Notes under the pieces: model-generated
The model's database searches: none
Told to the model about the DNA's origin: nothing
The model's input: only the letters and a program-made list of their open reading frames with translations
NCBI GenBank assembly: GCA_905478165.1
Contig: CAJQHK010000004.1
Location: 27,557 to 91,556, forward strand
Direction: 5' to 3'
DNA length: 64,000 nt
DNA from: an uncultured Rickettsiales bacterium
Lineage (GTDB): Bacteria > Pseudomonadota > Alphaproteobacteria > Rickettsiales > UBA1997
Shown: one piece after another, positions 10,749 to 64,000 of the stretch
How the letters are laid out: each line of letters starts with the position of its first letter
How positions within the stretch are numbered: position 1 is the first letter of the stretch
Translations under genes and position numbers: made by a program

Positions 10749-10763
10749 TTATGATTATGCTAA

Positions 10764-10923
10764 TTCCCATTTATAATTGGGATATTTCTAGACGCTCCTA
10801 CAATATATTATGTAGAAAAATATTTTAAGGTTAGAATTATCAAAAAACGACAGCCCTATATTAACAGGATGTAAGGATTTTTGGTAATTAGAAGCTTAAA
10901 AGATAAAACTAGGTCATACTATT
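10764..10923 (+). repeat. Dispersed imperfect-palindrome repeat, family A, copy A1 (overlaps the dxs stop)
   Basis: It shares CCCATTTATAAT...TATGTAGAAAAATATTTTAAGGTTAGAATTATCAAAAAACGAC...TTTTTGGTAATTAGAAGCTTAAAAGATAAAACTAGGTCATA with the copies at 13331, 17521, 42371 and 45011. The left and right arms are inverted complements of each other. Confidence 0.7.
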
Positions 10924-12873
10924 AGTGACCAAATCTACAATAGAACTTACCCCAATCCCAGATTCTTCTTGCATCTTTTCAACTGACTTCTGCTCAATAA
11001 ACTTATCTGCCATGTGAAGAGGGTAAAATTTTAACTTATTTTTAAACAAAATGTCATTTTTTAAAAGAAAATCAGCAATTGTAGAGCCAAAACCACCAAT
11101 AACTCCCTCTTCAATGGTAATTAAGACATCGTGACTTGCTGCTAAATCTAATAACAGTTCTTGATCAAAAGGTTTGGCAAAAATAGCATCAGCAATAGTG
11201 ATATTAATATTGTGTTTTTCTTGTAAAATTTTATCAGCCAGAAGAGCATTATTGATAATTGATCCGAGTGATAGGATGGCAATCCGCCCGCCCTTTTTAA
11301 TAATTTTCCCCTTTCCTATTGGTAATGTTTTAATTTTTATCAATTCACCCCCCAACTTTTCAAGGGTAAGTTCCGAATTAAGGATATTTTGTAATTGATT
11401 AGAAATATTAGTGTTTCCTCTTGGAAACCTAAATGCTGAAGGATTCTTATCAATTGATAAGGATGTTTTGATTGCTCTTGCCAAATCATCACCATCCTTT
11501 GGAGCCATAAGAATAAAGTTCGGTAAATTAATAAGATAAGCAATATCAAAAGATCCTGCATGGGTTGGGCCGTCAGCACCGACAAAACCAGCCCTATCGA
11601 TTGCAAACCTAACTGGTAAATTTTGTATAGCTACATCATGTACAATTTGATCGTAAGCTCTCTGAAGAAAGGTAGAATAGATTGCTACAAAAGGTTTAAT
11701 TTTTTCACAAGCAAGACCAGCAGCAAAAGTAACCGCATGCTGTTCAGCAATTCCAACATCAAAAAATCTATTAGACTTCCTTGGAAATTCTTTTTCGAAA
11801 ATATCAAGACCGGTACCAGTTGGCATGGCTGCAGTAATTGCCACAATATCATTATCTATTTTTGCCAATTTTGTTAAAAACCCACCAAAAACTTTACTAA
11901 AAGACGGGATATCACTAGTTGGAGAGTATTTTTCTCCCGTTTTTGAGTCAAATTTTACTACCGCATGGAGAGAGTCGACGGATGACATAATTTTATTGTA
12001 ACCCCTACCCTTTTCAGTCTTAATATGAATTAAAATTGGAGTGTCAGACTTATCATTCTTAATATTTTCTAGTATAGTCACCAAAATATCTACATTGTGA
12101 CCGTCAACAGGACCGATATAATAAAAACCCATCTCTTCAAAGATATTGCCACCCATCCACCATTCCTTAGCAGCCTTTTCAAATTTTTTAGGGAATTTAG
12201 CAATGGAGTCGGGTAATTTTTTTAAAAACTTCTTAGAAATATCGCGAATTTTTAAATAAGATTTCGATGCAGCAAGACGAGAAAGATAATTGGACATAGC
12301 TCCAACGGGAGGAGAAATAGACATATCATTGTCATTTAAAATGACAATTAAACGATTATGAGCAGATCCAGAATTATTAAGTGCCTCATAAGCCATGCCA
12401 GCACTAATTGCACCATCCCCTACTACAGCAATTATATTTCTTTTTTCTTTTTTAATGTCACGAGCTAAGGCAAAACCAAGAGCTGCAGAAATAGAAGTCG
12501 AACTGTGACCAGCTCCAAAAGGGTCAAATTTACTTTCTGATCTTTTTGTAAAACCACTAATGCCACCCTCTTGCCTAATGGTAAGCATCTCTTCTCTTCT
12601 GCCGGTTAAAATTTTATGGGGATATGATTGATGACCAACATCCCAAATAATCTTGTCATCCGGAGTGTCAAATACGTAATGAAGAGAGGTGGTCAACTCA
12701 ATAACTCCAAGACCAGCACCTAAATGACCACCAGTTTTCGATACTATTTCTATTGTTTGTTGGCGAAGCTCATCCGAAACATCCTGCAACTGAGACCTTC
12801 TTAACTTTTTAAGATCTTTTGGAAACTTAAGATCATTTAATAGTTTATAATTACCAAAATTAATTCCGGTCAT
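10909..12873 (-). CDS. dxs: 1-deoxy-D-xylulose-5-phosphate synthase
   Basis: Motifs are GGHLGAGLGVIELT, the WDVGHQSYPHKILTGR motif, the GDGAISAGMAYEALNN TPP-binding motif, and DRAGFVGADGPTHAGSFD. Confidence 0.95.
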   Translation of the reverse strand: MTGINFGNYKLLNDLKFPKDLKKLRRSQLQDVSDELRQQTIEIVSKTGGHLGAGLGVIELTTSLHYVFDTPDDKIIWDVGHQSYPHKILTGRREEMLTIRQEGGISGFTKRSESKFDPFGAGHSSTSISAALGFALARDIKKEKRNIIAVVGDGAISAGMAYEALNNSGSAHNRLIVILNDNDMSISPPVGAMSNYLSRLAASKSYLKIRDISKKFLKKLPDSIAKFPKKFEKAAKEWWMGGNIFEEMGFYYIGPVDGHNVDILVTILENIKNDKSDTPILIHIKTEKGRGYNKIMSSVDSLHAVVKFDSKTGEKYSPTSDIPSFSKVFGGFLTKLAKIDNDIVAITAAMPTGTGLDIFEKEFPRKSNRFFDVGIAEQHAVTFAAGLACEKIKPFVAIYSTFLQRAYDQIVHDVAIQNLPVRFAIDRAGFVGADGPTHAGSFDIAYLINLPNFILMAPKDGDDLARAIKTSLSIDKNPSAFRFPRGNTNISNQLQNILNSELTLEKLGGELIKIKTLPIGKGKIIKKGGRIAILSLGSIINNALLADKILQEKHNINITIADAIFAKPFDQELLLDLAASHDVLITIEEGVIGGFGSTIADFLLKNDILFKNKLKFYPLHMADKFIEQKSVEKMQEESGIGVSSIVDLVTNSMT

Positions 12874-13268: not shown

Positions 13269-13330
13269 ATATTAATATAATTAACTTGTCTATCAAGGGA
13301 TCATATTCTTATAACGCTTCTACCTTATAA

Positions 13331-13652
13331 GACATTATATAACAAAATATTTTAAGACTAAAATTGTCAAAAAAACGACTGCCCTATATTAATGGGTACA
13401 AAGCTTTTTTGACACTTAAAATCTTAAAAAATGAAGCCAGATTACGCTATTACTTATCCAGTATTATAACAAAATTCATTTATAATGCAACTTTAGGTCA
13501 ACTAATTTTGGTTAGAAATTTATTACTAAATTTACGCTTAATATCCGAATATATTTAGCTAAATTTTATGATAATTTTTGGCCAAAACAACAAGCATAGA
13601 TGTTACATTATAGATACACTTTGGTGTTATAGGTGGGAAATTGGCATTATAT
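13331..13652 (+). repeat. Family A repeat, copy A3 (expanded, contains a second degenerate partial copy)
   Basis: AAATATTTTAAGACTAAAATTGTCAAAAAAACGACTGCCCTATATTAATGGGTACAAAGCTTTTTTGACACTTAAAATCTTAAAAAATGAAGCCAGATTA matches A1 and A2. The terminal CTTTGGTGTTATAGGTGGGAAATTGGCATTAT matches the A2 end. Confidence 0.6.
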
Positions 13653-14257: not shown

Positions 14258-14410
14258 ATTAACTTTTCTTAAAACCTACAATAAAAATCTGCACAAAAAT
14301 AACTTGAACAGTTTCTGAGGATTTTTTAATTTATTTTTTACAAAACCAAACTAATAGCAATGTCCACTTTAAAAACCATGTTAAAAAACTAGGCAATCTA
14401 TCTTTATTTT

Positions 14411-14530
14411 TTTTACCATTATCTACAAAAAACCTTATAAAATGTAGGCATATTCCAGTTATTTTTTATAAATGACAGGTAAAAATATTTGATATATTAT
14501 TTATTTTAAGGTGGGTTTTGGTGTTATATC
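14411..14530 (+). repeat. Dispersed repeat family B, copy B1 (overlaps the 3' end of the 14501..14938 ORF)
   Basis: About 115 bp align with 35591-35710 and, inverted, with 17436-17525. The shared core is ATATTCC(A/G)GT(T/C)ATTTTTTATAAAT(G/A)A(C/T)AGGTAAAAA(A)TATTT..ATATATTA.TTATTTTAA(G/A)GTGG. Confidence 0.7.
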
Positions 14531-14938
14531 ACCCCTACCTTGATTTTTTTTATACCTAAACTTACTCATTTCTGTCTTATTAGAATTATCTTTCTTTCTA
14601 AATTGTCGTTTATTTTGGCTCCCACCTTCTTTATAAGATGATTTTCTGTCAAACCTTCTATTCTTCCTATATTCCTTATTACTATTACTACCATCTTGAT
14701 CATCAGTTCCACTACCCCTTCTCGAACCTCTACTTTCTCTTCTTCTTTTTCTTGCTTCAGCTCTACCTTCACTCCTTCTGTCAACCTCCGACCTTCTTTC
14801 TTTTAATATAGCTTGTTTTTTCTCTTGATACTCCTTTCTTAAATTATCCAATTGCACATCATGACTAGCATGATCGTCAGCTAAAGCAGTAAAAGATAAG
14901 AATGCAGATAGTAAAAATATAAGAAATATATTTCTCAT
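14501..14938 (-). CDS. Hypothetical secreted, highly basic low-complexity protein
   Basis: A Sec-type signal peptide (MRNIFLIFLLSAFLSFTALA/DD) is followed by Arg/Lys/Ser/Glu-rich sequence (RKRRRESRGSRRGS, KNRRFDRK). No family recognised. Confidence 0.5.
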   Translation of the reverse strand: MRNIFLIFLLSAFLSFTALADDHASHDVQLDNLRKEYQEKKQAILKERRSEVDRRSEGRAEARKRRRESRGSRRGSGTDDQDGSNSNKEYRKNRRFDRKSSYKEGGSQNKRQFRKKDNSNKTEMSKFRYKKNQGRGDITPKPTLK

Positions 14939-17223: not shown

Positions 17224-17435
17224 AATTAATAATTTGAATTAAACTAACTCATTCAACAAAAAAACCTTTGACCAATCTTAATTTTACAATAGGATCTTGC
17301 TAAATAGAAACGAGACTACAAAAGTTTTATCTTAATTTGATAAATTTGAGATGCAACGAAAACATGTATCACAATTAATATTCATGTAAAAAAACAAATC
17401 TTGCTACCACATTTTTACAGAGTCTTAAACATAAC

Positions 17436-17525
17436 ATAGCCGTACCAATCCCCTTAAAATAAGCAATATATCAAAATTTTTCTATCTATCATTTAAAGAA
17501 ATGACTGGAATATGAGTGCCCACTC
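17436..17525 (-). repeat. Family B repeat, copy B3 (inverted orientation)
   Basis: The reverse complement GGCACTCATATTCCAGTCATTTCTTTAAATGATAGATAGAAAAATTTTGATATATTGCTTATTTTAAGGGGATTGG aligns with B1 and B2. Confidence 0.6.
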
Positions 17526-17650
17526 TAACAGGTTGTAAGGCTTTTTGATGATTTTGGGATAAAAAGATAAAAAAACTACCTTAACTTGTGTATTTTAAGG
17601 TTGGAAATTGCTACTGGACCTTAAAATTATCATAAACGACAACTACGTCA
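17521..17650 (+). repeat. Family A repeat, copy A4 (circularly permuted: right arm precedes left arm)
   Basis: TAACAGGTTGTAAGGCTTTTTGATGATTTTGGGATAAAAAGATAAAAAAACTA (the A right half) is followed by TATTTTAAGGTTGGAAATTG...TTAAAATTATCATAAACGACAAC (the A left half). Confidence 0.5.
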
Positions 17651-35363: not shown

Positions 35364-35590
35364 TTGGTTATCATTTTATTTTAACTACAAGATAATAGGC
35401 AGATTTAGATTTACCAATAAAATTAGCTATTTTTTGTAAAGATTACTTTTCAACAAATCTCATATGATAAATTATTTACCCATCTTTAAATGTTAAATGT
35501 TTAAAATTCCTCCTATTCGTAATCATATTAATTTTATTAAATTTTAAAAAATAATAAAAATTACATCACATTGTTCGAATAGAATCTATA

Positions 35591-35710
35591 ATTTACCATC
35601 AAAAGGTAAAAGGCTTATAACATATGGATATATTCCGGTCATTTTTTATAAATAATAGGTAAAAAATATTTTAATATATTACTTATTTTAAAGTGGATTT
35701 TGACATGATG
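35591..35710 (+). repeat. Family B repeat, copy B2 (overlaps the uvrC 3' end)
   Basis: It aligns over about 115 bp with B1 (14411-14530), including the segment that encodes the last codons and stop of uvrC. Confidence 0.7.
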
Positions 35711-37611
35711 TTAAAATCAAAAATTTGCTTAGCAACCTTGTTGCCTAAATTTTTTACCCTCTTTAAATCCTCTAATGAAGCCTCCTTAATGGAATTAAGG
35801 TCTCCAAAGTGATTTAGTAATAATTTTTTACGAGCAGCGCCAACATTTGGAATTTCATCAAGCTCAGACTTAAACATGGATTTTTTTCTTTTAGCAACAT
35901 GAGTACCAATTGCAAAGCGATGAGCCTCGTCACGAAGATTTTGCAAATAATAAGAAATAGCAGAATTTTTAGGTAAATTAAAATGATGATATTCATTATC
36001 TTGAATTATGTGATAATCTTCTAGACCAGAATTTCTACCAGACCCTTTCGACATACACAAAAAAGGAATTTTAATATTTTGTTTATCAAAAACCTCTTCT
36101 ACCGCTGATAATTGACCTTTTCCACCGTCGATAATTATTAAATTTGGTAAATTTCCCTCTTCATGACTATCAAAATCCTTAAATCTTCTGTAAAACACTT
36201 GTTTTAAAAAATTGGTATCATCTTTTTTTGATAATTCTTCTAACTTTATATTAAATTTACGATAATTACTCTTTACAAAGCCATTTTCAGAAGCAAAGAC
36301 CATAGCGCCAACGACATTTGTGCCAGAAGTATGGCTATTGTCATAAATTTCTATCCTATTTGGGATATGTTTAATTTTTAAAAGAACTTTTAGCTGCAGT
36401 AGTAAATCTGCGATCTTGGTGTCACTTGCGATTTTTTTATCAATTTCTTCCTGTAAAAAGAGTAAATTATCATTAATTAATTGTAATTTCTTACCTTTTT
36501 TAGGATACAATATCTTGACATATCTCCTTCCTCCGAGAGGATTGTGCCTTTCTTGTATTTGAGAAATGCCTACTGAACTAAACTCATTAACGTCTTTATT
36601 GCCATTAAAAGAAGTCTCTAAATTGGATAATAAATTATAGATATCCTCCCTACCCTCTAAATCTATATTGCTAATAATGTTTTTTGGAATTTCATGATTT
36701 TGATAGAACTGACCAATAAAAGCAAAAATAATATCAAAATCGGAGTCATCGAGGTTTATGTTAAAAAAATAAGTTTTATTGCCATAATTATGGCCAAAAC
36801 GATAGAAGGAAATATTAATTGCAACGATATCAGCCTTTCTCATAAATAAAATCATATCCATCTGCCCTATTTCAGCGATACTTATATTCTGCTTAGCCTG
36901 AATGATACTTAAAGACTTGATTCTATCTCGAATTTTTGCCGCCTTCTCAAATTCCAATTCTTCACTATATTTTTTCATTTTCTTAGATAATTCTTCTTGC
37001 AAGTTAGAATTCTTACCCTTTAAAAAATTAATTGCCATTTCTGTCAATTTTTGATATTCTTTTTTCGATATTAAATCGACACATGGTGCGCTACATCTCT
37101 TAATTTCATATTCAAGACAAGGTCTTTTTCGAGATCTAAATTCAGCATCTGAACAGCTCCTAAGTAAAAAAGTCTTCTTTAAGGACTCCATTGACTGACC
37201 AACGGCGTAAATATTAGCAAAAGGTCCAAAATGGTAAGATTTATTATCTTTTAAACCGCGATATTTAAAAATTTTTGGAAAATCTTCATTTTTAGAAATA
37301 GAAATATAAGGAAAAGACTTAGAGTCTTTAAGTAGAATATTATATTTTGGTTTATATTTTTTAATTAAATTACATTCTAAAAGTAAAGCCTCAATTTCGT
37401 TATTAGTTAGAATCATTTCTAGCTTTTCAGCATTTAAGGTCATCTTAGTGATTCTGGTAGTAAGATTTTTGGTATCCAGATAATTTTTAAGACGATTATA
37501 TAGATTTTTTGCCTTACCGATATAAAGAATTTGATCATTTTTGCCAAAAAATTGATAAATTCCAGGTTTTTTAGGAGCTTCTTTGATTCTTTCTCTTAAA
37601 TATTTTTGCAT
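35683..37611 (-). CDS. uvrC: Excinuclease ABC subunit C
   Basis: Features are a GIY-YIG N-terminus (PGIYQFFGKNDQILYIGKAKNLYNR), a UVR domain (ELEFEKAAKIRDRI), an RNase H-like endonuclease domain and a C-terminal HhH. Confidence 0.94.
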   Translation of the reverse strand: MQKYLRERIKEAPKKPGIYQFFGKNDQILYIGKAKNLYNRLKNYLDTKNLTTRITKMTLNAEKLEMILTNNEIEALLLECNLIKKYKPKYNILLKDSKSFPYISISKNEDFPKIFKYRGLKDNKSYHFGPFANIYAVGQSMESLKKTFLLRSCSDAEFRSRKRPCLEYEIKRCSAPCVDLISKKEYQKLTEMAINFLKGKNSNLQEELSKKMKKYSEELEFEKAAKIRDRIKSLSIIQAKQNISIAEIGQMDMILFMRKADIVAINISFYRFGHNYGNKTYFFNINLDDSDFDIIFAFIGQFYQNHEIPKNIISNIDLEGREDIYNLLSNLETSFNGNKDVNEFSSVGISQIQERHNPLGGRRYVKILYPKKGKKLQLINDNLLFLQEEIDKKIASDTKIADLLLQLKVLLKIKHIPNRIEIYDNSHTSGTNVVGAMVFASENGFVKSNYRKFNIKLEELSKKDDTNFLKQVFYRRFKDFDSHEEGNLPNLIIIDGGKGQLSAVEEVFDKQNIKIPFLCMSKGSGRNSGLEDYHIIQDNEYHHFNLPKNSAISYYLQNLRDEAHRFAIGTHVAKRKKSMFKSELDEIPNVGAARKKLLLNHFGDLNSIKEASLEDLKRVKNLGNKVAKQIFDFNIMSKSTLK

Positions 37612-42316: not shown

Positions 42317-42370
42317 TGATAAATTTTTTTAATGTTAATTTAGTATTTCTCGTGATAATTGTATTGCAGC

Positions 42371-42540
42371 ATTTCCCATTTATAATGCATTATGTAGAAA
42401 AAATATTTTCATGTTAAAATTGTCAAAAAACGACCGCCATATGTTAATGGGTATAAGTCTTTTTGGTAGTTATAAGCTTAAAAGAAGAAGCTAGATCATA
42501 ATATTGTTTACTCGGTGTTATAGATAAGAAATGGTGTTAC
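42371..42540 (+). repeat. Family A repeat, copy A2 (abuts or overlaps the stop of the 42537..43745 gene)
   Basis: ATTTCCCATTTATAATGCATTATGTAGAAAAAATATTTTCATGTTAAAATTGTCAAAAAACGACCGCCATATGTTAATGGGTATAAGTCTTTTTGGTAGTTATAAGCTTAAAAGAAGAAGCTAGATCATA...CTCGGTGTTATAGATAAGAAATGGTGTTA aligns with A1 and A3. Confidence 0.7.
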
Positions 42541-43745
42541 CTCCTCATATTATAAAATAAATCTAAAATTGTAAATCTATTTCTAATTAAGTTAGCATTT
42601 TTTACAGCTTCCAAATATATATCTTCACTTAAACCAATATCGCAATATTTTTGAGGTAAGGAAAAGTGATTTGATATTTGTAATATCTTATCATGAGACA
42701 TAAAGTTCCTAGAAAGCTTCGAGGTTAAGCTTTGAAAATCCTTTAGCTTACTATTAATTATCTTAGATCTCTCTTGATTAATAATTTTACTACTAAATTC
42801 ACTCCAAAAATATATAGCTAAATCCTCATTAAATATTTTTTTAAAATAGTTAAAATTAATGTCCGAAACCTTGGTTTGAAAATTTAATAAATTCAAAAAC
42901 TCTTCCTGCATTTTAGCTATAATCAGGCTAGTAATAGCAATTTGCTCACCATGCAAAGATTTTTCCATTATTTTTGGATATTTAATTTCTAAATAATGAG
43001 CTATCAGATGTTCAGATTGACTTGCTGGATAACTTCCCCCTGAAATTGCCATAGAAATACCAGAGTTAATAAGAATTTTAGCTAATAAAGTAATGAACTC
43101 CTTATCATTAATTTTACCATCATAATTTAATAATTTTTGATATAGATTGCTGACCAAATCAAAAGCTTCTACATTATAATGAGTATCAAGAAGTAGGTGA
43201 GATAAAAGCCAGTCAAATCTGCAAGTTGAAATACAGATACTGTCACCTATTCCAGCACGAATCATTCTTTCTGGAGAATTGATTAAAAGATCAAGATCAA
43301 AATAAATTGCAATTGGTAAATGTGCCAAAAGAGAATTTTTTCTACCAGAGGTAATTATTGAAGCATTTTTAGAAGCGTAGCCATTCATGGATACAGCGCT
43401 GGCAAAAATAATATATGGAATATTATTTCTATAGCTAGAAATCTTACACAAATCATTGATAGTACCAGAACCAAAGCCAACAGTAGCTTTTTTATTACAA
43501 GATTTGGTGATAATTTTTGCAATAGACTCTTCGTCAGGCTTTGGATTATCTAAGATTACTAGATCAATATTTAATGGAAGAAGATTTTTAATTTGAGGAT
43601 AGATATTTTGATCAGTAACAATCAAAATATCCTCTAAATCTAAATTAAATTTTTTAAGAATTTGGGTAAAATTAACGATCAAATTATGATCAATGATTAT
43701 CTCATTAATTGTAATTTGATGTTTTTCTAAAAGATTATTAAACAA
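42537..43745 (-). CDS. Iron-containing alcohol dehydrogenase superfamily protein (Fe-ADH_2; glycerol-1-phosphate dehydrogenase AraM/EgsA-like)
   Basis: VGFGSGTINDLCKISS...PYIIFASAVSMNGYASKNASI matches the G1PDH-type GGG..D.aK...P.i.vPT.aS.DG..S motif. Putative metal ligands lie in GIGDSICIS, SEHLIAHYLE and HGEQIA. Confidence 0.55.
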   Translation of the reverse strand: MFNNLLEKHQITINEIIIDHNLIVNFTQILKKFNLDLEDILIVTDQNIYPQIKNLLPLNIDLVILDNPKPDEESIAKIITKSCNKKATVGFGSGTINDLCKISSYRNNIPYIIFASAVSMNGYASKNASIITSGRKNSLLAHLPIAIYFDLDLLINSPERMIRAGIGDSICISTCRFDWLLSHLLLDTHYNVEAFDLVSNLYQKLLNYDGKINDKEFITLLAKILINSGISMAISGGSYPASQSEHLIAHYLEIKYPKIMEKSLHGEQIAITSLIIAKMQEEFLNLLNFQTKVSDINFNYFKKIFNEDLAIYFWSEFSSKIINQERSKIINSKLKDFQSLTSKLSRNFMSHDKILQISNHFSLPQKYCDIGLSEDIYLEAVKNANLIRNRFTILDLFYNMRR

Positions 43746-44954: not shown

Positions 44955-45010
44955 AATAGTTAAATTTAATTATAGTGTCGTTTAATATCAATTCACATAT
45001 AAGAAATAAC

Positions 45011-45106
45011 ATAATCTGGATTTATCTTTTAAGTCTGTAATTACCAAAAAGTTTTTTAGCAATTTTAACCTTAAAATATTTTGCCACATAATGCATTACG
45101 GATAGG
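45011..45106 (-). repeat. Family A repeat, copy A5 (inverted, central loop deleted)
   Basis: The reverse complement AATGCATTATGTGGCAAAATATTTTAAGGTTAAAATTGCTAAAAAACTTTTTGGTAATTACAGACTTAAAAGATAAATCCAGATTAT joins both A arms directly, without the loop. Confidence 0.65.
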
Positions 45107-45606
45107 AATTGACATAATATTCCAAAAACTACACAATGTCAATATAGTTATCAACTCAAACTTATCAAGTATTTTGTTATTAATAGTAACAAATCCAATA
45201 AAAATCTTTTCTCAACCGTTATTGCTAATTAATGATCTTACAAAAATTCTTAAAAACTGTAAAAAACTAATATCAATTCCTACCTTTAAATATACAAGTT
45301 AAAACAGCTTTTTTCTTTTAGATTTTGCTTTTAGTCACAATCATGTTTTAAGTTATTTATGAATTAAAAACAAAATCTAAAAAAACAGTAAGAGTTGACG
45401 CCACTTCTTTACAACTCATCAATGAGGGGATAACAACCTTATTTCAGCACCTTTTGCATTACAAATTACACAATCTATCTAAAATTTTGATAATTTTATT
45501 ATTGAGTCCATATTGTACCCCTTAACAATATAATCATCTATATCATCATTGATAATCTTCACTGTGATATCCTTACTATCATTGAGGAAAGAAGCAATAA
45601 TTGGCA

Positions 45607-46275
45607 TTAGATATAATCCTTATATTGATGAGTACCTCTCATCACAATATTAAAAGTACAGATTTTACGAGAATTAGGATTAAACATGTCAGACAATCTT
45701 ACTGTAGAAGTTAAAGCTTTCCTATCATCAGGATTATAAGATAAATATTGTGAATCCATTTTATTCCTTGGGTGATCCTCAAAATAGAGTTCAGTTTTTA
45801 AATATCCAAACCTTTTGTGATAAATATTCATATTGATATGCGGACTCCTACCGAAATAAAAACCAGGAACTATTGTAATAAAACGATAATTACCAAGATT
45901 GTCAGTTATGGACACTCCAGACATATTAAAATTCTTATCAATATTTTTGTCATTACTTGCCAATAAACTATGGTACTTACCTTTGGAATTTGTTTGCCAA
46001 ATCTTTATAATTGCACCCGTTATTGGTACACCAAAAGAGTCCGTGATTTTACCTTGTAAATATACTATCTCACCAAAAGCTAAATAAAATGAACCTGTTT
46101 TTTTTATCAAATTATTAGTTTGATTAAAAACCTTCGGCATAGAAAAATTATTTAAAAATAATCTCGATGGCGTTGGCTCCCTACTATTAAAAGAATTACT
46201 AAAATCATCAGCAAGTCCAATATTAGTGGCAAAAAATATAACAGTAATTAATTTTATAAGTATCCTAACTAACAT
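45607..46275 (-). CDS. Secreted intradiol ring-cleavage dioxygenase family protein (PcaH-like fold)
   Basis: A signal peptide is followed by LQGKITDSFGVPITGAIIKIWQTNSKGKYH...GNYRFITIVPGFYFGRSPHINMNIY...TELYFEDHP, which parallels the protocatechuate dioxygenase beta-subunit core. The usual H-x-H iron-ligand pair reads H-I-N here. Confidence 0.7.
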   Translation of the reverse strand: MLVRILIKLITVIFFATNIGLADDFSNSFNSREPTPSRLFLNNFSMPKVFNQTNNLIKKTGSFYLAFGEIVYLQGKITDSFGVPITGAIIKIWQTNSKGKYHSLLASNDKNIDKNFNMSGVSITDNLGNYRFITIVPGFYFGRSPHINMNIYHKRFGYLKTELYFEDHPRNKMDSQYLSYNPDDRKALTSTVRLSDMFNPNSRKICTFNIVMRGTHQYKDYI

Positions 46276-51376: not shown

Positions 51377-52012
51377 AAACAAACACTTACCCTAAAAACT
51401 GTATCAATAGCCCAAAAACCTAGTATTTCAATAACTTTACAGCTCACTTTTTAACTAATACACCTCAAAATTATGTCATTAAAGCATAAGGAGATTGTAA
51501 CATTAAACAAGTTAGTTGATCAAAACCATAATTACCACAAATCTAAAGAATTGTAGGATTTGTTAGAAATTATACCAATTCCCATCTTTAAAGGATATAA
51601 AATATTTAAACCATTACGACGTCTCTCTTTGACCCATTTCATAAAAAATTTAAGTAATAGGCGTTAGAGGGTTCATTAAAAACGAACCTTACTTCTAAAC
51701 GAGTTTGATTTATTTTGCAATAATTCCTCCTCCATTACTCAAGGGGACTATACGCATAGATCTATGGCTATTTTAGTAATTAACTGATCTGATTCTAATA
51801 CTAAATTCTGAATAATAATTTGTGTATTGTCTTTTTGGACACGGTTTTAATTTTTAATTATTAAAGTACGAATTTTAACTATCCCAAAAAGTATGTCTAC
51901 ATCAGAATAAACAACGTCAATTTTTCAGATATATCTGTAGATCATGATAATCCAACTGATAATATGATTTTGACATTATGAAACTATTGAAATGTATCTA
52001 AAATATTTGTGT

Positions 52013-52339: not shown

Positions 52340-52815
52340 ATTAATATCGACCCCAGACTTAATTTTACTATCAATCTTGACTTAAAGGGAGGTTCTTACG
52401 AAAACTTTTACTACAATAACATAACTAACTGTAATATTTATAATTTTATATTTTTACCTTAATCATAACTACAGCAATCCTTAAATTGTTACAATTTTAA
52501 TTAATAAATAAAATATTTCGACCCCAACAATATAAGTTGCAAAATAACACAATCTCTGCTATCAATAAGAATCGACATGATAATAATTTCTACATTACAT
52601 TCTATATTAATAAATTCAAGAGTTTTTTTTAAAATACACTTGAAAACAATAATTTTAAAAAATTAATTAGACAAGTTATACTTAAGCTTATATCGTTTTA
52701 GGCAGAATATACTCTTATATTTTATTAAAAATTATGGAGTTTAGATATCATTATTGATAATTAATTAATTACTTAATTTTATTGAAATAACTTTATAAAT
52801 AAATCAGACAATCAG

Positions 52816-57404: not shown

Positions 57405-58118
57405 TTAGATATTGAGGTTAGATGGAAATATTATACTAAACACCATATCATCAAAAAAATATGAGTAGCACTTATATTGTGGAAAATTCCTAAAATAACA
57501 AATATAATAATGATCCTTACGAATTAATTCAGATATTTCGTATATTTTTAAATTTGTCATTAATCCAGTTTTAAGCGCTTTAGATAAAGATTCTTTTGCA
57601 GTCCATAACAAAGTAGCCATTGAATCATTATGGGAAAAATTATTAACTTCAGACTGAGATAGCTGACTCTTTATTTCTTCAAGACTGCCTAGACGAATTT
57701 TTTCTAAATCTACCGCTAATGGAGTAAAGTCAAAAAAGGCTACAGCTATCGCCATATCATTTTTATGACTTATAGAAATCTGAATCCCACTTATATTAAC
57801 GCCGCTTACAACAGGTTGTCCAAAAATACCATTTAAAATAGAAAAGCCCTTTAGGTCTTTGATTTTAACTAAATGAGATATCGCTCTCTTTGCCGCTATA
57901 CGACCAAGTAGATACGCGTCCTTCTGATACATATTTGATAAAGACACGTAGAAATTCTTTTCCTCTTTACTTAAATACCTATCTGCATTAAACAATTCCT
58001 TGTTCAAAGAGTTAGATTTACTAATTACACAATTATATTGTTTATCTAAATAATTTAATTGAAACTCAACACAACTAGCGTCAGAAGGTTCATTTAAAAA
58101 ATCTAAAATAAGCAACAT
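57405..58118 (-). CDS. 4'-phosphopantetheinyl transferase, Sfp type
   Basis: QISISHKNDMAIAVAF and LLWTAKESLSKALKTG (the W/F-x-x-KE-S/A-x-x-K motif) are present, and the 237-aa size fits. The start lies 13 nt after the PKS stop. Confidence 0.8.
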   Translation of the reverse strand: MLLILDFLNEPSDASCVEFQLNYLDKQYNCVISKSNSLNKELFNADRYLSKEEKNFYVSLSNMYQKDAYLLGRIAAKRAISHLVKIKDLKGFSILNGIFGQPVVSGVNISGIQISISHKNDMAIAVAFFDFTPLAVDLEKIRLGSLEEIKSQLSQSEVNNFSHNDSMATLLWTAKESLSKALKTGLMTNLKIYEISELIRKDHYYICYFRNFPQYKCYSYFFDDMVFSIIFPSNLNI

Positions 58119-58131
58119 AAAGGACTTTATT

Positions 58132-61100
58132 TTATAATTTAATCAATGAAATTGAATCTTCGATTTTACTAACAATAAACTCTTTATTTCTACTTAAAAA
58201 CCAATGATCTCCATGAAGCTCATGAAAACTAAAATTATTATCAGTCTGATCTTCCCATTGCTTCAACTCATCTAATAAAACAACATCATCTTCTTTTGCT
58301 CCAAAAGCTAAAATTGGAATACTTAATTTCTCTTCATCCTTATATTGATAAGTCATAATTACCTCCATATCCCTCTTCATCACTGGTATTATACTACGCA
58401 AAAAATCTTCATCATCAATATACGATACTGTTGATATAATCTTATCGATAGTATTCTCTTTTCTAGCTGTCTCCTTTATTGATTCCCTGCCTCTCCATTT
58501 TTTTGTTAATTGTGGAGCTATAGACCCTGTGACAATAAGCTTTTTGATATTTTGATATTCAGTAATATTATTTCGTCTCATATATTTTATTACTTCATAA
58601 AGAGTAACTCCTCCCCAGCTATGACCCCAAAATATTGATGGGCCATCGATTTCTGGAATTATCTGTTTAGATAAATCTTCGACTAATTTATCCACATTGC
58701 TATAGTAATACCCTTCGTCCAAACGATTCTCTCTACCCGGCATTTGTAAGGCGATGATTTCAGTATTCTTTGGAGGATTGAAGATAAAATGACTAAAAAT
58801 TGATGCACCAGCACCCACAGGATGTAGGCAAAAAATTTTTATTTTTACATTGTCATCCTCTTTTCTTCTTCTGACAAACCATTTGTCGCTACTTACCACA
58901 ATATCATCATCTCCATCTATTCCCGACTTATCTAATCCTACATTATCGCTATCTTTCTTAAGCATGGATATTATCTCTGTAGCCAGTTCTGTTAGACTGG
59001 GACCTTTTGCCAGCCTCATTAAAAACAAATTTATTTCAATATTTAATTGAATCCAGCTTCTAAATTGATTAAGCATCAAAGAGTCTAATCCAATGGTCGT
59101 AATAGAATTATTCAAAGAAATATCTTCACCAGAAACTCCCAAAATATCTGCAACACTATTTGCCAACAATTCCGATACCTTTTCAACCTTCCAATCAATA
59201 TCGTCAGATGCTATTATTTTCTGTAAAATACCATCCAAATTATTACTCTTACTAAATGAGTCCTTCTTTATAACAGCGCTAAACATAAATCTATCCTTTA
59301 CAGATTTATAAGTTTTAACAAAATTACTCCACTTCATTGACGATATCATTAAATAGTCAAAATTAGAATTTAAAAGTTCTTCTAATTTTAGATCAATATC
59401 ACTCCTGTTTATTACGACCGTACCTAACGCTCTATATATAGAATCAACATTTTTCTTACTATCTTTTGTCATTCCCGCATAATCACCACCGATAAGGCCA
59501 AAACACGCAGAATGACAAGCTAAACCATTGCTATTCCTGTAAATTGACAAGTAATTTAAAAAGCTGTTTGCTGATGAATAGTTGCTTTGTCCGCCTATTC
59601 CAATAAATGAGGAGACTGAGGATATTAGTAAAAATAGATCTAACTCAGTATCTAAAGTTGCTCTGTGTAAATTCCAAGCTCCTAATGCTTTTGGATCATA
59701 GACTTTGAAGAATCTTTCTTTAGTCATATTTGGATATGAAGAATCGTCTAATATACCGGCAGAATGAATTACTCCCCTCAATGGCGGCATATTATTTTTA
59801 ATGTAAGAAATTACCCTGTTGATATCTTCCTCTTTCGAGACATCTCCCTTTACATCTTGCCAATTAATATTAGCACCTAAATTTTGTAATTTTAATATTA
59901 TTTTATTATCTCTTTCATATTTTGGTCCTGACCTACTAACTAAAGCAAAATTTCTTGCACCCCTTTCAAACATCCACTCAGCAAGAGTTAGGCCAAGACC
60001 GCTGGCGCCACCACTTATTAAATAGGTTGCATCATTTTTAAATGACAATTCTTGGTTTGTGTCCATTTTTTGCTCAATTGCTACTAATTTTCTGGCAAAC
60101 CTACCATAATCTCTAATTGCAATTTCTGTTTCATAAGGGACCTTCTCTTCCTTGTTTATTTCTTTAATTAAATGACTGACATTATCTTCTAATTTTTGAC
60201 AGCCAAGATCAATCATCCTAACTTGATGATCAGGATGTTCATTCATAAATACCCGACCCATACCATAAAGCGAACCTTGTAAAAAATTTATATTCTTATC
60301 CTTTTCCTTATCAACTTGATCAGCATTTTTAGTAATCTGATAAATATATATTTCTTGATTTTCTATTTTTAATATCTCTTGAGATAGATAGAGGTTTGAT
60401 AGAAATAAATTCTGCGACTCTATCTGAAAAGCTTTACTATCACTGGTATCATCAATTATTGAGTCCACTGACCAAAGATTAATAATTTTAGAAAGTTTTA
60501 TATTTTTATTTTTTAAACTCAAAAATAGCTCAATAAAATTATCTTTGGAGGTTGGGTTGATTCTGTAGTGATTGCTGAATTCATTCTGGAAAGAAGTTCC
60601 TTTATCTATAGTGATAATATTATATCCAGCTTCTGATAACTCCTTTGATAATGGAGTTGACAAACCTTCATCAGAAAGAATGGCGATATTGATTTTATTG
60701 TTTTTAGTAACATCTGCGCTTGCGATCTTAGTTTTAACATGTGACTCAAACCATTGATATTTATAAAGACCTCTATCTGCATTATCTTCTTGGATATCCA
60801 GGCAGCTCTTGTTTATATTTTTTGTTATAGATACTATCTGACTATCGGAATCATAAGTCACGACATCAGAAACTATATTTTTACTATCAATTGAGTGTAA
60901 TTTTACATAACTCCATAATGTAGATTGTTGATCCTTATATTTAGTAAATTTACCAAAACTTTGTGGTAAATAAATATTGTCACCACCAGCAAAAAGAGAT
61001 GCATGTAAACAAGAATCAGATAAATTTGGAATTATATTATATTGATCAGCAATATACTCATCTTCTTGTGACAGTTCAACTCTGGCCAATATCTCGCCAT

Positions 61101-64000
61101 CATCATTTTGCCACATCTCTTTAATTAATCTAAAATGATATCCGTAATTAAGACCCTTACTTTTTAATTTAGAGTAAAATTCATCGACAGAAATCTTTTT
61201 ATCAATCCTATTTTTTAGATCTTTTAATTTATCATAATTGTTAGCATCATTAGCGGTGCTATCACATGATATTTTGCCACTACTATTTGATTGCCAGTTT
61301 TGACTATCGCCTTTTTTACTAAATATCTGATAAAGACCGGACTCAAGATTAATTTCTATTTTTGCTTCAACTTGCTCCTCCTTATCTGACAAAAACAATG
61401 CCTTTTTAAATTCAAGATTTTCTATATGAGAAAATTTATCACCGTAAAACTTTTTACCAACAGCAATCGCAATTTCTGCATGAGCGGTTGCGGGCAAAAC
61501 CATAACTCCGCCAATTTTATGGTCAGCAAGGAATATTTCTTTCTTCGGACTTAAATCTAAATCAATAATTTTTAGATTTTTATCCAAACTACTTTCAATA
61601 ACCGTTTTAATAAATGGGTGAATTCTCTTTTTTAATCTTGATTCTTTATGATCTTCACTCTCATACCAGTATTCCTTGTGATCCCAGCTATAGGTTGGTA
61701 ATTTAATTGAAGTTGGGTTTTGGTTTTTATCTACAAGTAAATTTAAAAATTGTGTTCTATTTGTTGCTACGTGAACTTTGGCAGCTGCTGACAAAATGTC
61801 ATTAATTTCATAATCTATATTAGCTTCAAAGCTTTTGATGTTTCTGGAAAGTGAGGAAATTATATAGCCATCTTTTTTTGCTAAAGATAACATATCATTA
61901 ACGCCAGCACCTAAGATTGGGTGTGGAGCGATTTCAATAAAATAATTAAATCCATCTGCAATCATTTTTTCTATTGCTGAGATAAAATAAACTGTATCTC
62001 TAACATTTTTATACCAATATTCATTAGTTAAATGTAAACCACTCTCTTGAAGTCCTGTAACAGTTGAATATAAAGAGATTGCTGATTTTTGAGGCTTAAG
62101 ATCCTTAAGACTTTCAATCATATCATCTCTTGTCATATCCATATAATGACTATGGAATGGTACATTTATCTTTAGGAATCTACTAAATATATCTTTTTCT
62201 TCCAATTCTTTAGCAATGATTTCTAAAGGCTCTGCATCTCCTGATAAAACTGTTGCTTCTGGCCCATTGACAGCTGCAATCGAAACTTTTCTTTGATATT
62301 TTTGTATAATTTGTATAGATTTAGAAAGTGGTAATCCTATGGCTAGCATCTTACCTTTTCCAGAAGCTTTATCCTGCTCTTTTGATCTATTGTAAATTAC
62401 ATCTACTGCCTGCTCTAAAGTAAGAGATCCTGCGCCATAAGCTGCAGCTACCTCACCTATTGAATGACCAACAATTCCATCTGGATTAATTCCCAGATAT
62501 TTCCAAATCTCAATGAGACCTATTTGTACGGCCATTATTGCTGGCTGAGCTATTCTTGTCTCAGAAACTCTAGAATCTTCTTTGTTTTTTTTCATCTCTG
62601 TTAGTAGAGAATAGCCAGAAATTTTATTAAAAATCTTATCAATCTTAGTGATAATTTCGGAAAATATTTTTGATTTTTCCAACAATTGCCTGCCCATAGC
62701 ATACCATTGAGGACCTTGCCCAGAACAGATAAATGCTATTTTTAACTTTTCATTTTTTTTAGTTTTTCCTGTTATGATTTGCTGATTTCGTGTATCAGAA
62801 ATATATAGGGACAATTTCTTGATTAAATCTTCTTTTGAGTTACAGATTATTATAAGTTTTTCTTCAAAGTTTGATCTGTTATTAATAACGGAATAACAAA
62901 TATCTATCAAATTATTTTTACCATCTCTGGTAAAATTAAGATATTTTTCTGCTAATTTTTTTAAAGAATTTTTAGATTTCGCTGATAATGAAAAAATGTA
63001 AGGGAAATTATCATTACTATCTTCTGATTTAGATTTTTGTTCTGACTTAGAATTACTAACATACTCCTCCAAAACAATATGAGAGTTGGTACCTCCAGCA
63101 CCGAATGAATTAACACCAGCAATTGCCTTTCTATCTTTTTTACCAGGCCATTTGGTTAATTTGGTTGGAACTTTTAATTTCCATTCATCAAATTTAATCT
63201 TAGGATTTGGAGTGTTAAAATGTAAGTTTTGTGGAATTTGCTTATTCTTAATGCAAAGAGCTAATTTAGTAAGACCTGCAATGCCAGCGACAGCTTCGGT
63301 ATGACCAATATTACTCTTAATTGAACCAATAATTAAAGGATTTTGAGGATCTCTATCCTTAGCAAACACATTACCAAAAGCTGCACATTCCTTAGGGTCA
63401 CCAACCACGGTTCCAGTTCCATGAGCTTCAATAAAATCAACATCCTTAGGATTAATAGAGGCGCCAGAGTAAACCTCTTCAAGCATCTGTTGTTGAGCAA
63501 ATTCATTTGGTACAGTCATACCATCTTCAGTATAACCATCAAAATTTACTACAGCATTTTTAATTACTGCATAAATATTATCACCATCCTTTTCAGCTTG
63601 ATCTAGCGGCTTCAAAATTACAACTCCAGCACCTTCACCCCTAACATAACCATTACCAGCAGCATCAAAGCTTTTACAATAACCATCAGGACTTAAGAAT
63701 CCACCCTTTGATAATCCAACAAAATGCTCATGACTAGACATAATGTTAACACCTCCAGCAATTGCCATATCAGCATCTCCAATCCAAATATTATTACAGG
63801 CAATCTGCACAGCAACAAGGGAGGAGGAGCAGGCGGTATCAACAGATAAAACTGGGCCCTTTAAATTAAATTGATAAGCAATTCTAGCAGGAACTGTCAC
63901 ATCGGAACTTCCCATTAAGCTATGAGCATTAATATGATCTATATCATCTCCAGCATATTTTTTTCCTTCATCGCCTAAAAATATACCAGTTATTACCGCT
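58132..64000 (-). CDS. Type I polyketide synthase, KS-AT-DH-KR-ACP-TE; N-terminus lies beyond the window edge
   Basis: The frame stays open upstream of the listed Met to nt 64000 (AVITGIFLGDEGKKYAGDDIDHINAHSLMGSS...). KS (about 63061-64000): DTACSSSL (Cys codon 63829-63831), EAHGTGT, KSNIGHTE. AT (about 61846-62739): FICSGQGPQW, GHSIGE (Ser codon 62461-62463), VPFHS. DH (about 60796-61623): HKIGGVMVLP (H-x3-G-x4-P). KR (about 59476-60693): GGASGLG, HSAGILDD, SNYSSAN. ACP (about 58966-59193): GLDSL. TE (58135-58848): GHSWGG (Ser codon 58618-58620), HGDHWF. Confidence 0.9.
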   Translation of the reverse strand, partial: AVITGIFLGDEGKKYAGDDIDHINAHSLMGSSDVTVPARIAYQFNLKGPVLSVDTACSSSLVAVQIACNNIWIGDADMAIAGGVNIMSSHEHFVGLSKGGFLSPDGYCKSFDAAGNGYVRGEGAGVVILKPLDQAEKDGDNIYAVIKNAVVNFDGYTEDGMTVPNEFAQQQMLEEVYSGASINPKDVDFIEAHGTGTVVGDPKECAAFGNVFAKDRDPQNPLIIGSIKSNIGHTEAVAGIAGLTKLALCIKNKQIPQNLHFNTPNPKIKFDEWKLKVPTKLTKWPGKKDRKAIAGVNSFGAGGTNSHIVLEEYVSNSKSEQKSKSEDSNDNFPYIFSLSAKSKNSLKKLAEKYLNFTRDGKNNLIDICYSVINNRSNFEEKLIIICNSKEDLIKKLSLYISDTRNQQIITGKTKKNEKLKIAFICSGQGPQWYAMGRQLLEKSKIFSEIITKIDKIFNKISGYSLLTEMKKNKEDSRVSETRIAQPAIMAVQIGLIEIWKYLGINPDGIVGHSIGEVAAAYGAGSLTLEQAVDVIYNRSKEQDKASGKGKMLAIGLPLSKSIQIIQKYQRKVSIAAVNGPEATVLSGDAEPLEIIAKELEEKDIFSRFLKINVPFHSHYMDMTRDDMIESLKDLKPQKSAISLYSTVTGLQESGLHLTNEYWYKNVRDTVYFISAIEKMIADGFNYFIEIAPHPILGAGVNDMLSLAKKDGYIISSLSRNIKSFEANIDYEINDILSAAAKVHVATNRTQFLNLLVDKNQNPTSIKLPTYSWDHKEYWYESEDHKESRLKKRIHPFIKTVIESSLDKNLKIIDLDLSPKKEIFLADHKIGGVMVLPATAHAEIAIAVGKKFYGDKFSHIENLEFKKALFLSDKEEQVEAKIEINLESGLYQIFSKKGDSQNWQSNSSGKISCDSTANDANNYDKLKDLKNRIDKKISVDEFYSKLKSKGLNYGYHFRLIKEMWQNDDGEILARVELSQEDEYIADQYNIIPNLSDSCLHASLFAGGDNIYLPQSFGKFTKYKDQQSTLWSYVKLHSIDSKNIVSDVVTYDSDSQIVSITKNINKSCLDIQEDNADRGLYKYQWFESHVKTKIASADVTKNNKINIAILSDEGLSTPLSKELSEAGYNIITIDKGTSFQNEFSNHYRINPTSKDNFIELFLSLKNKNIKLSKIINLWSVDSIIDDTSDSKAFQIESQNLFLSNLYLSQEILKIENQEIYIYQITKNADQVDKEKDKNINFLQGSLYGMGRVFMNEHPDHQVRMIDLGCQKLEDNVSHLIKEINKEEKVPYETEIAIRDYGRFARKLVAIEQKMDTNQELSFKNDATYLISGGASGLGLTLAEWMFERGARNFALVSRSGPKYERDNKIILKLQNLGANINWQDVKGDVSKEEDINRVISYIKNNMPPLRGVIHSAGILDDSSYPNMTKERFFKVYDPKALGAWNLHRATLDTELDLFLLISSVSSFIGIGGQSNYSSANSFLNYLSIYRNSNGLACHSACFGLIGGDYAGMTKDSKKNVDSIYRALGTVVINRSDIDLKLEELLNSNFDYLMISSMKWSNFVKTYKSVKDRFMFSAVIKKDSFSKSNNLDGILQKIIASDDIDWKVEKVSELLANSVADILGVSGEDISLNNSITTIGLDSLMLNQFRSWIQLNIEINLFLMRLAKGPSLTELATEIISMLKKDSDNVGLDKSGIDGDDDIVVSSDKWFVRRRKEDDNVKIKIFCLHPVGAGASIFSHFIFNPPKNTEIIALQMPGRENRLDEGYYYSNVDKLVEDLSKQIIPEIDGPSIFWGHSWGGVTLYEVIKYMRRNNITEYQNIKKLIVTGSIAPQLTKKWRGRESIKETARKENTIDKIISTVSYIDDEDFLRSIIPVMKRDMEVIMTYQYKDEEKLSIPILAFGAKEDDVVLLDELKQWEDQTDNNFSFHELHGDHWFLSRNKEFIVSKIEDSISLIKL

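Follow-up and report, generated by a model that had tools for sequence, protein, structure and literature searches.

The Correia elements of Neisseria and the ERIC elements of enterobacteria are MITEs of 100-200 bp, non-coding and imperfectly palindromic over their whole length (PMC10969869). Like the repeat that we describe here as family A, they carry ~25-bp terminal inverted repeats and a short duplicated target, lie in spacers at gene ends, where they are often clustered or nested, can form a hairpin when co-transcribed and exist as subfamilies and internal-deletion variants (PMC10969869). Family A differs from them in that it shows no sequence similarity to either, has an apparent 3-bp TWA target instead of TA, resides in an uncultured marine alphaproteobacterium and consists mostly of old copies. 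Also, unlike Correia and ERIC, family A has no demonstrated IHF site, promoter activity or RNase processing. The Rickettsia palindromic elements (RPE-1 to RPE-10) resemble family A in being ~150-bp palindromes with one unusually open frame and contact with coding ends, in a host that carries, as ours does, a Rickettsiales label (PMC10969869); unlike them, family A showed no in-frame insertion inside a protein in the search described below, and its host is of a free-living-like kind outside the genus Rickettsia. REP and BIME sequences are likewise intergenic, palindromic and multicopy, but they are built of 20-40-nt units without terminal inverted repeats or target duplications. Finally, Tourist-like MITEs and the IS5 and PIF-Harbinger transposases are associated with 3-bp TNA/TWA duplications. 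Tourist-like MITEs share with family A the short length, the terminal inverted repeats and the TAA/TTA direct repeats; family A is unlike the Tourist/IS5 group in that no transposase of the IS5 family, nor any other matching one, was found with it and in that its ends begin with TACC, and not with the GA or GG typical of the terminal repeats of IS5 groups.

The window, that is, the whole stretch of 64,000 nucleotides that was analysed, is ~89% coding. It has 19 intergenic gaps of at least 100 bp, and 8 of these hold members of the superfamily formed by family A and a sister subfamily B. Their neighbours are housekeeping genes (rnhA, dxs, nuoC, metK, fadL, a histidine kinase gene and a G1P-dehydrogenase-like gene). 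Exact copies of the proteins of the window occur in many seawater metagenomes, Tara included, and identical or related proteins are labelled “Rickettsiales bacterium” at NCBI. The gene content of the lineage is alphaproteobacterial (NDUFS4-type and NDUFA12-type subunits, VirB3), and the host resembles a free-living organism (ilvB, dxs, a PKS) outside the genus Rickettsia. A sister MAG (JBLHPX01) and related JGI contigs are ~93-94% identical in DNA to the window. Since the GenBank title of this MAG reads “MAG: Ulvibacter sp.”, a flavobacterial host was considered, and it was rejected on account of the “Rickettsiales bacterium” proteins and of the alphaproteobacterial gene content; the “Ulvibacter sp.” label is probably a mislabel. 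The individual loci of JBLHPX01 (L005-L032) share 93-94% of their positions with the window, and one of its proteins is identical to a “Rickettsiales bacterium” deposit.

The first-pass annotation of the window had listed five dispersed copies of the repeat. Using a profile built from the copies, we obtained four strong matches in the window (A1, A2a, A4 and A5; nhmmer, E 1e-25 to 1e-43), while the remaining copy, A3, turned out to be a member of subfamily B. In a repeat scan family A formed the top direct-repeat groups (D1-D3), to which A5 was joined via inverted repeats (I1-I3), and the window copies were only 60-68% identical pairwise. A1 (10782-10957, plus strand; E 8e-41) shows clear homology at 10790-10927, and both of its terminal repeats are degraded. 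A solo left-terminal-repeat-like sequence, TAATTCCCATTTATAATTGGGA (10761-10782, plus strand), closely precedes the rnhA start and is distinct from the degraded end of A1 itself; it includes an exact TTCCCATTTATAAT at 10764-10777. In the sister MAG, the distance from this solo terminal repeat to A1 is greater by ~118 nt (L013, 2198-2320, compared with 10780-10786 of the window), owing either to a further element there or to the loss of sequence in the lineage of the window.

What had been taken for an expanded second copy is instead a pair of elements. A2a (13307-13466, profile match to 13473, plus strand; E 3e-36) has a right terminal repeat that is cut short at the start of A2b (13467-13646, plus strand), and the latter has terminal repeats of its own (TAACAAAATTCATTTATAATGC ... 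TATAGGTGGGAAATTGGCA), its own TTA/TTA flanks and an interior that differs from that of A2a. A2b appears to have inserted at a TTA inside the right terminal repeat of A2a. A4 (42367-42536, profile match 42361-42542, plus strand; E 3e-43) is a full-length element of 170 bp with both terminal repeats. A5 (44979-45114, profile match to 45120, minus strand; E 2e-25) has a degraded right end. Its arms had been described as joined without a loop, and ~29 central nt are indeed absent, a deletion that is common to its ortholog in the sister species. In addition to these copies, there is a left-arm fragment at 17582-17640 (plus strand; nhmmer match to model positions 46-76, with a ~20-nt internal insertion) and a weakly matching left-arm-like fragment, TTAACTTGTATATTTAAAGGTAGGAATTG, at 45260-45310 (minus strand), which resembles the arm at 17582-17610.

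In agreement with the first-pass annotation, which had placed the copies in intergenic spacers next to gene ends, all of them lie in spacers or overlap the ends of genes. The stop codon of dxs (TAG, 10909-10911, minus strand) and at least its last four codons are within the clear homology of A1, and the G1P-dehydrogenase-like gene, on the minus strand, has the right-hand flanking TTA of A4 (42537-42539) as its stop codon. In one related locus (L055) the element fills the entire PDT-MFS spacer and overlaps both genes, and in another (L063) its left end is truncated by the Hda stop codon. At L030 (6776-7504), the called start and the first 53 codons of a lipoprotein-like ORF are located inside a stop-free copy of the element, and the signal peptide starts right at the right end of the element.

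Alignment of the window copies with those of related genomes revealed a full unit of 168-173 bp, TACC...GGTA, that is an imperfect palindrome over its whole length. Public-collection copies were picked by an exact match to the left arm, so that the conservation of the left arm looks inflated in this alignment. From left to right, the element consists of a left terminal repeat, TACCATTTCCCATTTATAATGCATTAT(A/G)TAG; a left arm, AAAATATTTTAAGGTTAAAATTGTCAAAAAACGAC; a small central hairpin, CCCTAT..ATAGGG; a right arm, CTTTTTGGTAATTAGAAGCTTAAAAGA; a spacer that includes CTAGATCAT; and a right terminal repeat, ...CCAGTATTATAGGTGGGAAATGGTA. The ends are ~25-bp terminal inverted repeats, TACCATTTCCCATTTATAATGC on the left and ...TATAGGTGGGAAATGGTA on the right, which may also be written as TACCATTTCCCATTTATAAT and its complement, and a GTAG or ATAG motif directly follows the left one. 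The core sequences quoted in the first-pass annotation are present as given, but they comprise only the inner arms of this larger 168-173-bp element. Among 16 copies, 80% of the aligned cells of the arms pair, compared with 41-52% (~48%) after a shift of the partner column by 1-3 positions, which upholds the earlier description of the arms as imperfect reverse complements. The outer helix 1 comprises 21 pairs, with 71% of the cells paired in the same number of copies, degraded ones included. At the right ends of several copies a TACC-like sequence comes next, resembling a new left end; tandem or end-targeted insertion is one reading of this arrangement.

The copy A3 had been interpreted as having permuted halves. 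It corresponds to a full-length member of subfamily B (17432-17590, plus strand; B profile E 9e-37, A profile E 1e-4), followed by the separate left-arm fragment at 17582-17640. The right half of this B member is A-like, with a weak A-profile match at ~17455-17571, and the element aligns end to end in a three-way alignment with the other two B members of the window, B1 (14355-14535, minus strand; B profile E 7e-37) and B2 (35573-35713, minus strand; B profile E 2e-30), both of which belong to the repeat families D5/D10. The B profile also picks up family A copies (E 1e-5 to 1e-3), and the A profile matches B1 weakly over model positions 9-165. On the basis of these reciprocal matches, we regard A and B as sister subfamilies of similar length. 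Subfamily B is a dispersed repeat of ~150-180 bp that was also seen in related contigs (L046, 1010-1148; L048, 5626-5725). A, B and A2b-like elements form a small superfamily in a marine alphaproteobacterial lineage.

We then compared the outer 3 nt on both sides of the element with the ends fixed at TACC and GGTA, ends that had been picked after inspecting the sequences. Identical 3-bp TWA direct repeats were found at five of nine independent loci, and two more loci agreed at two of the three positions. The perfect pairs were TAA/TAA in L009 and L032, and TTA/TTA in L048, L054 and A2b (13464-13466 and 13647-13649). Two positions agreed at the locus represented by A4 (TTG at 42364-42366, TTA at 42537-42539) and L007 (CTA/TTA), and at the one represented by L030 and L033 (TTA/TTG), and a single position agreed in L036 (TAA/TTG) and L055 (TAA/TGT). 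All five perfect pairs were direct and none was inverted (p ~0.03), a result that favours a duplicated TWA target over three extra bases of the terminal repeats, while the TWA at the flanks might still be a conserved terminal trinucleotide. Duplications of TA or of 4 bp, and longer terminal repeats, fitted the flanks worse than TWA. The three polymorphic loci, which were deletions or too diverged to read, provided no clean pair of filled and empty sites, so the TWA duplication rests on the flank comparison.

A degenerate left-arm scan of a genome collection identified eight copies, all of them in the MAG JBLHPX01, and a metagenome scan identified six further loci. Altogether, related contigs contain at least 15 further distinct copies, and at least 20 distinct loci are known to carry the element. 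The first-pass annotation had reasoned that its repeat family would fall if a wider search found no further copies and if the arms were complementary at chance level, or if the repeats were fragments of a known IS terminal region. Instead, more copies were found in related genomes and the arms pair beyond chance. A1 has an ortholog in the sister MAG (L013, 88% identical), A4 has orthologs in L007, L042 and L044 (those in L007 and L042 are 87% identical to it), and the ortholog of A5 (L042, 8631-8776) has the same central deletion. Given that these orthologs are found in a sister species ~93% identical in DNA, the insertions of A1, A4 and A5 predate the species split.

Other spacers differ between relatives in the presence of the element. 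The spacer between a thioesterase gene and a 332-aa gene is 57 nt long and devoid of the element in an outgroup (77% amino-acid identity), contains a full copy in the sister MAG and retains a 43-nt one-end stump in the window species. Similarly, the ALS/GST spacer holds a full copy in the MAG and a 24-nt remnant in the window species, the remnant being a chimera in which the left terminal repeat is joined to the right flank with its TACC. A full copy with TTA/TTA flanks also occurs on one contig of a more distant lineage (ALS 85% identical), and in a pair of contigs of that lineage with the same ALS protein the right arm is gone by a 68-nt deletion. Every polymorphism that could be polarised was a deletion, never a new insertion. 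In the ADH/HK spacer, where A4 sits in the window, a relative (L039, 7201-7384; 76% protein identity) carries two units of another palindromic repeat, GGAACCTCTGAAAAAACTAAAA / TTTTAGTTTTTTCAGAGGTTCC. These spacer comparisons among relatives indicate that the lineage gathers palindromic spacer elements and sheds them by deletion.

A sign of recent activity was found at L054, a contig of 649 bp in which an IS481-family transposase ORF is broken at a TTA codon (codon 86) by two head-to-tail copies of the element. The two copies, separated by TTA, differ at one position (99% identity), and this near-identity implies that the family was active recently somewhere. The pair may be a genuine tandem or a loop created by assembly; in both cases, that organism has near-identical copies. 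Over its first 22 nt, L054 weakly resembles the terminal repeat of the element, a likeness that may be due to chance. The transposase of this locus is unlikely to be the parent of family A, because its ORF is interrupted by the element and not bounded by it. The ends of IS481 elements (TGT...) and their duplications also differ from those of family A.

Taken together, these results make it probable that family A is a MITE, that is, a non-autonomous DNA transposon that duplicates TWA. The element, at 168-173 bp, falls within the size range of MITEs (~50-500 bp) and lacks a transposase gene, the longest ORF on the copies being 64 aa; it has terminal inverted repeats, its target-site duplications are TAA/TAA or TTA/TTA at five of nine loci, with ends picked post hoc, and its copies are dispersed and variably present among relatives. 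Further support comes from A2b, which shares the ends and not the interior, and from subfamily B, which is distantly related over its whole length. The first-pass annotation had proposed a non-coding, hairpin-forming element of the REP, MITE or RPE type, in which it did not recognise any described family. The MITE part of that reading fits the terminal repeats, the TWA flanks and the subfamilies with shared ends, whereas REP is at odds with size and anatomy. We also considered an attC site or an integron cassette, and discarded it as both the core sites and the genomic context are absent.

With respect to its novelty, family A is a real and apparently undescribed repeat family. No family was matched in Rfam at either gathering or permissive thresholds, tRNAs being the only matches in the window; over A4 the best E value was 1.8, and four related loci gave no match. 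A blastn search of a plasmid collection, which presumably includes Rickettsia plasmids, returned only chance-level similarity (E ≥0.5), and a pattern scan of viral contigs gave 0 matches. Large automated catalogues of MITEs exist (PMC11602168), and they may already hold family A unnamed.

According to the mechanism that we propose, a transposase acting in trans would recognise the terminal repeats and insert copies at TWA (TAA or TTA) in AT-rich spacers, and each insertion would duplicate the 3-bp target. The transposase has probably been lost from this genome. We found none among the scanned ORFs of the window (most of those of at least 80 aa) nor in the fetched loci, with the exception of the disrupted IS481 of L054, and an autonomous partner with the same terminal repeats was found in neither the window nor the fetched loci. 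Since TWA duplications are typical of IS5 and PIF-Harbinger-type enzymes, the length and sequence of the duplication alone give a lead towards a transposase of this type. The burst of insertions is old, preceding the split from the sister species in the case of A1, A4 and A5. The copies have drifted nearly neutrally afterwards and are being eroded by deletions of one arm or of most of the element. Effects on genes are incidental: spacers are filled, stop codons are donated (dxs and the G1P-dehydrogenase-like gene) and, in related loci, gene starts are overlapped. Any co-transcribed copy would be expected to fold into a long hairpin.

Such a hairpin could alternatively be the reason why the element is kept, as a selected RNA-level structure (a hairpin that stabilises or terminates transcripts, a target of RNase III or a small RNA) involved in gene regulation. 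We consider this explanation improbable, although the position of the copies, exactly between genes and at gene ends, would suit it. The folding predicted in the first-pass annotation held for A1, A2a and A5 (z ~ -3.4 compared with shuffles), but not for A4, whose left arm is mutated and whose fold does not stand out significantly from shuffles (z -1.4 to -1.7). The strongest value was that of a related copy, L030 (z -4.25), and in the best-preserved copies one orientation folds ~10 kcal/mol better than the other, via G-U pairs. Against these indications, G-U pairs barely exceeded A-C mismatches when all copies were counted (80 versus 65), a slight excess that we found unconvincing as a sign of selection on RNA. 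The covariation that the first-pass annotation had put forward as a test of the structure was also at the level of shuffles: compensatory changes affected 13 pairs compared with 11.3 in column shuffles, and 128 of 500 shuffles reached the observed value. RNAalifold recovered the inner stem only, with a covariation term of -1.09.

Divergence and context were also unfavourable to a selected RNA. Orthologous elements are 87-88% identical, and the genes on either side of them are 86-89% identical at their third codon positions; purifying selection on the element sequence is not apparent. Related strains tolerate losing one arm or the complete element, and the copies point either way relative to the genes beside them, towards a gene start at ~5 of 11 loci. 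Read in the minus orientation, the consensus contains TTAACC-16 nt-TATAAT directed out of the left end, and this end faces the start of a downstream gene in three of the four window copies; however, scans for sigma-70 promoters and terminators in and around the elements returned matches at background frequency, with no canonical terminator inside the elements, and no Rfam family covers them. A Bacteroidetes-type promoter in the left arm was also considered, and it was dropped once the host proved to be alphaproteobacterial and not flavobacterial.

A kinship with the Rickettsia palindromic elements, with an open frame that spreads in-frame in a marine Rickettsiales-like lineage, seems similarly doubtful. 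In its favour, NCBI labels the proteins of the host “Rickettsiales bacterium”, a palindrome of ~170 bp is close to the ~150 bp of RPEs (PMC10969869), and the copies overlap gene termini. Moreover, one frame contains 0 stops in three related copies (L030, L033 and L006) and one or two in several others, compared with three to nine in the other frames, and it encodes a conserved peptide, ..FPFIMHYIAKYFKVKIVKKRLPYINRVQGFLAIRSLKDEARS... The first-pass annotation had stated that reading frames are not conserved between copies. This is true in part: the frame runs through without a stop in the three related copies just named, and about half of the copies have a stop at one and the same codon of it. 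By our own estimate, the chance that one ancestral AT-rich sequence of 60 codons has an open frame among six is ~0.04.

We searched 1.84 billion representative proteins with a peptide profile built from window pieces only, and eight proteins matched. Six of them were ORFs of 37-64 aa called on copies of the element. Another was the L030 lipoprotein ORF, which overlaps at its N-terminus and whose called start is within the element. The last one, P0378, is a fusion in which 86 residues from the N-terminus of an IS481-family transposase (NF033577, E 2e-17) are followed by element sequence. None of the eight had the element inserted in-frame inside a protein. As the stop is shared, a chance of ~0.04 is not small and the peptide is never internal to a protein, we treat the element as non-coding, in line with the first-pass annotation. 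The lack of similarity in the plasmid collection is a further point against a relationship with RPEs. A more specific version, in which family A would be a marine free-living counterpart of RPEs that is selected to keep one frame open, lands harmlessly at or inside gene ends and donates stops, starts, terminal peptides and a hairpin in polycistronic transcripts, has in our opinion a slender chance of being correct; if true, it would connect a transposase that duplicates TWA with the way in which RPEs arose and move.

The weakest explanation, that the repeats are solo ends of a known IS or REP/BIME units handled by a RAYT, is very unlikely, because the solo terminal-repeat-like sequences (10761-10782 and the L046 remnant) and the GTAG/ATAG that follows the left terminal repeat are outweighed by the joint occurrence of both ends and a conserved 120-bp interior at no fewer than 15 loci, by a ~170-bp unit far bigger than a REP unit of 20-40 nt, by the absence of IS and RAYT genes in the window and fetched loci, of Y1-transposases among the window ORFs and of any plasmid-borne IS match, and by the fact that the only transposase seen (IS481 family) has the element within its ORF and not at its borders.

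Family A, as a MITE, is an ordinary kind of selfish DNA, and its presence explains most of the unusually long spacers of a compact genome. In some genuine genes the stop or start codon is located within element-derived sequence, and public gene calls already include ORFs on the copies, for which reason masking is advised. The insertions and deletions provide markers for an abundant uncultured lineage of marine alphaproteobacteria, and the stepwise loss of single arms in related strains offers a natural record of the decay of long palindromes. Should a relationship with RPEs or a fitting transposase be found, it would bear on the spread of palindromic repeats in Rickettsiales.

Several other features of the window and its relatives were observed during the analysis. 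Three unusually long regions (1007-2274, 51377-52012 and 52340-52815) have no ORF of at least 80 aa and no A/B match, and Rfam gave no match in them at gathering score. A 92-nt hairpin segment at 45318-45403, TTTTAGATTTTG ... CAAAATCTAAAA, flanked by AAAGAAG and AAAGAAA, is absent from the sister contig L042; it is possibly a further mobile palindrome of small size. In the same sister contig (7504-8424), a 306-aa response-regulator gene is located between a dioxygenase-like gene and fadL; only its last ~190 nt or so remain in the window (45404-45608), from which we deduce that ~855 nt were deleted there. Upstream of the tRNA-Ser(TGA) gene, 2413-2479 is an 87% identical duplicate of 2523-2589, covering the upstream region and the first ~43 nt of the tRNA. 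Located 110 nt upstream of the real gene, the duplicate looks like a truncated pseudo-tRNA, and neither ARAGORN nor Rfam calls a tRNA in it. The G1P-dehydrogenase-like gene next to A4 (42537-43745, minus strand) encodes a bacterial glycerol-1-phosphate dehydrogenase homolog (EgsA/Fe-ADH_2) that is conserved across the marine lineage. Finally, a type I polyketide synthase with the domain order KS-AT-DH-KR-ACP-TE is encoded at 57405-63915 (minus strand); it comprises at least 1927 aa, extends past the window end and has a 4'-phosphopantetheinyl transferase gene beside it, an unexpected finding in a genome labelled as Rickettsiales.
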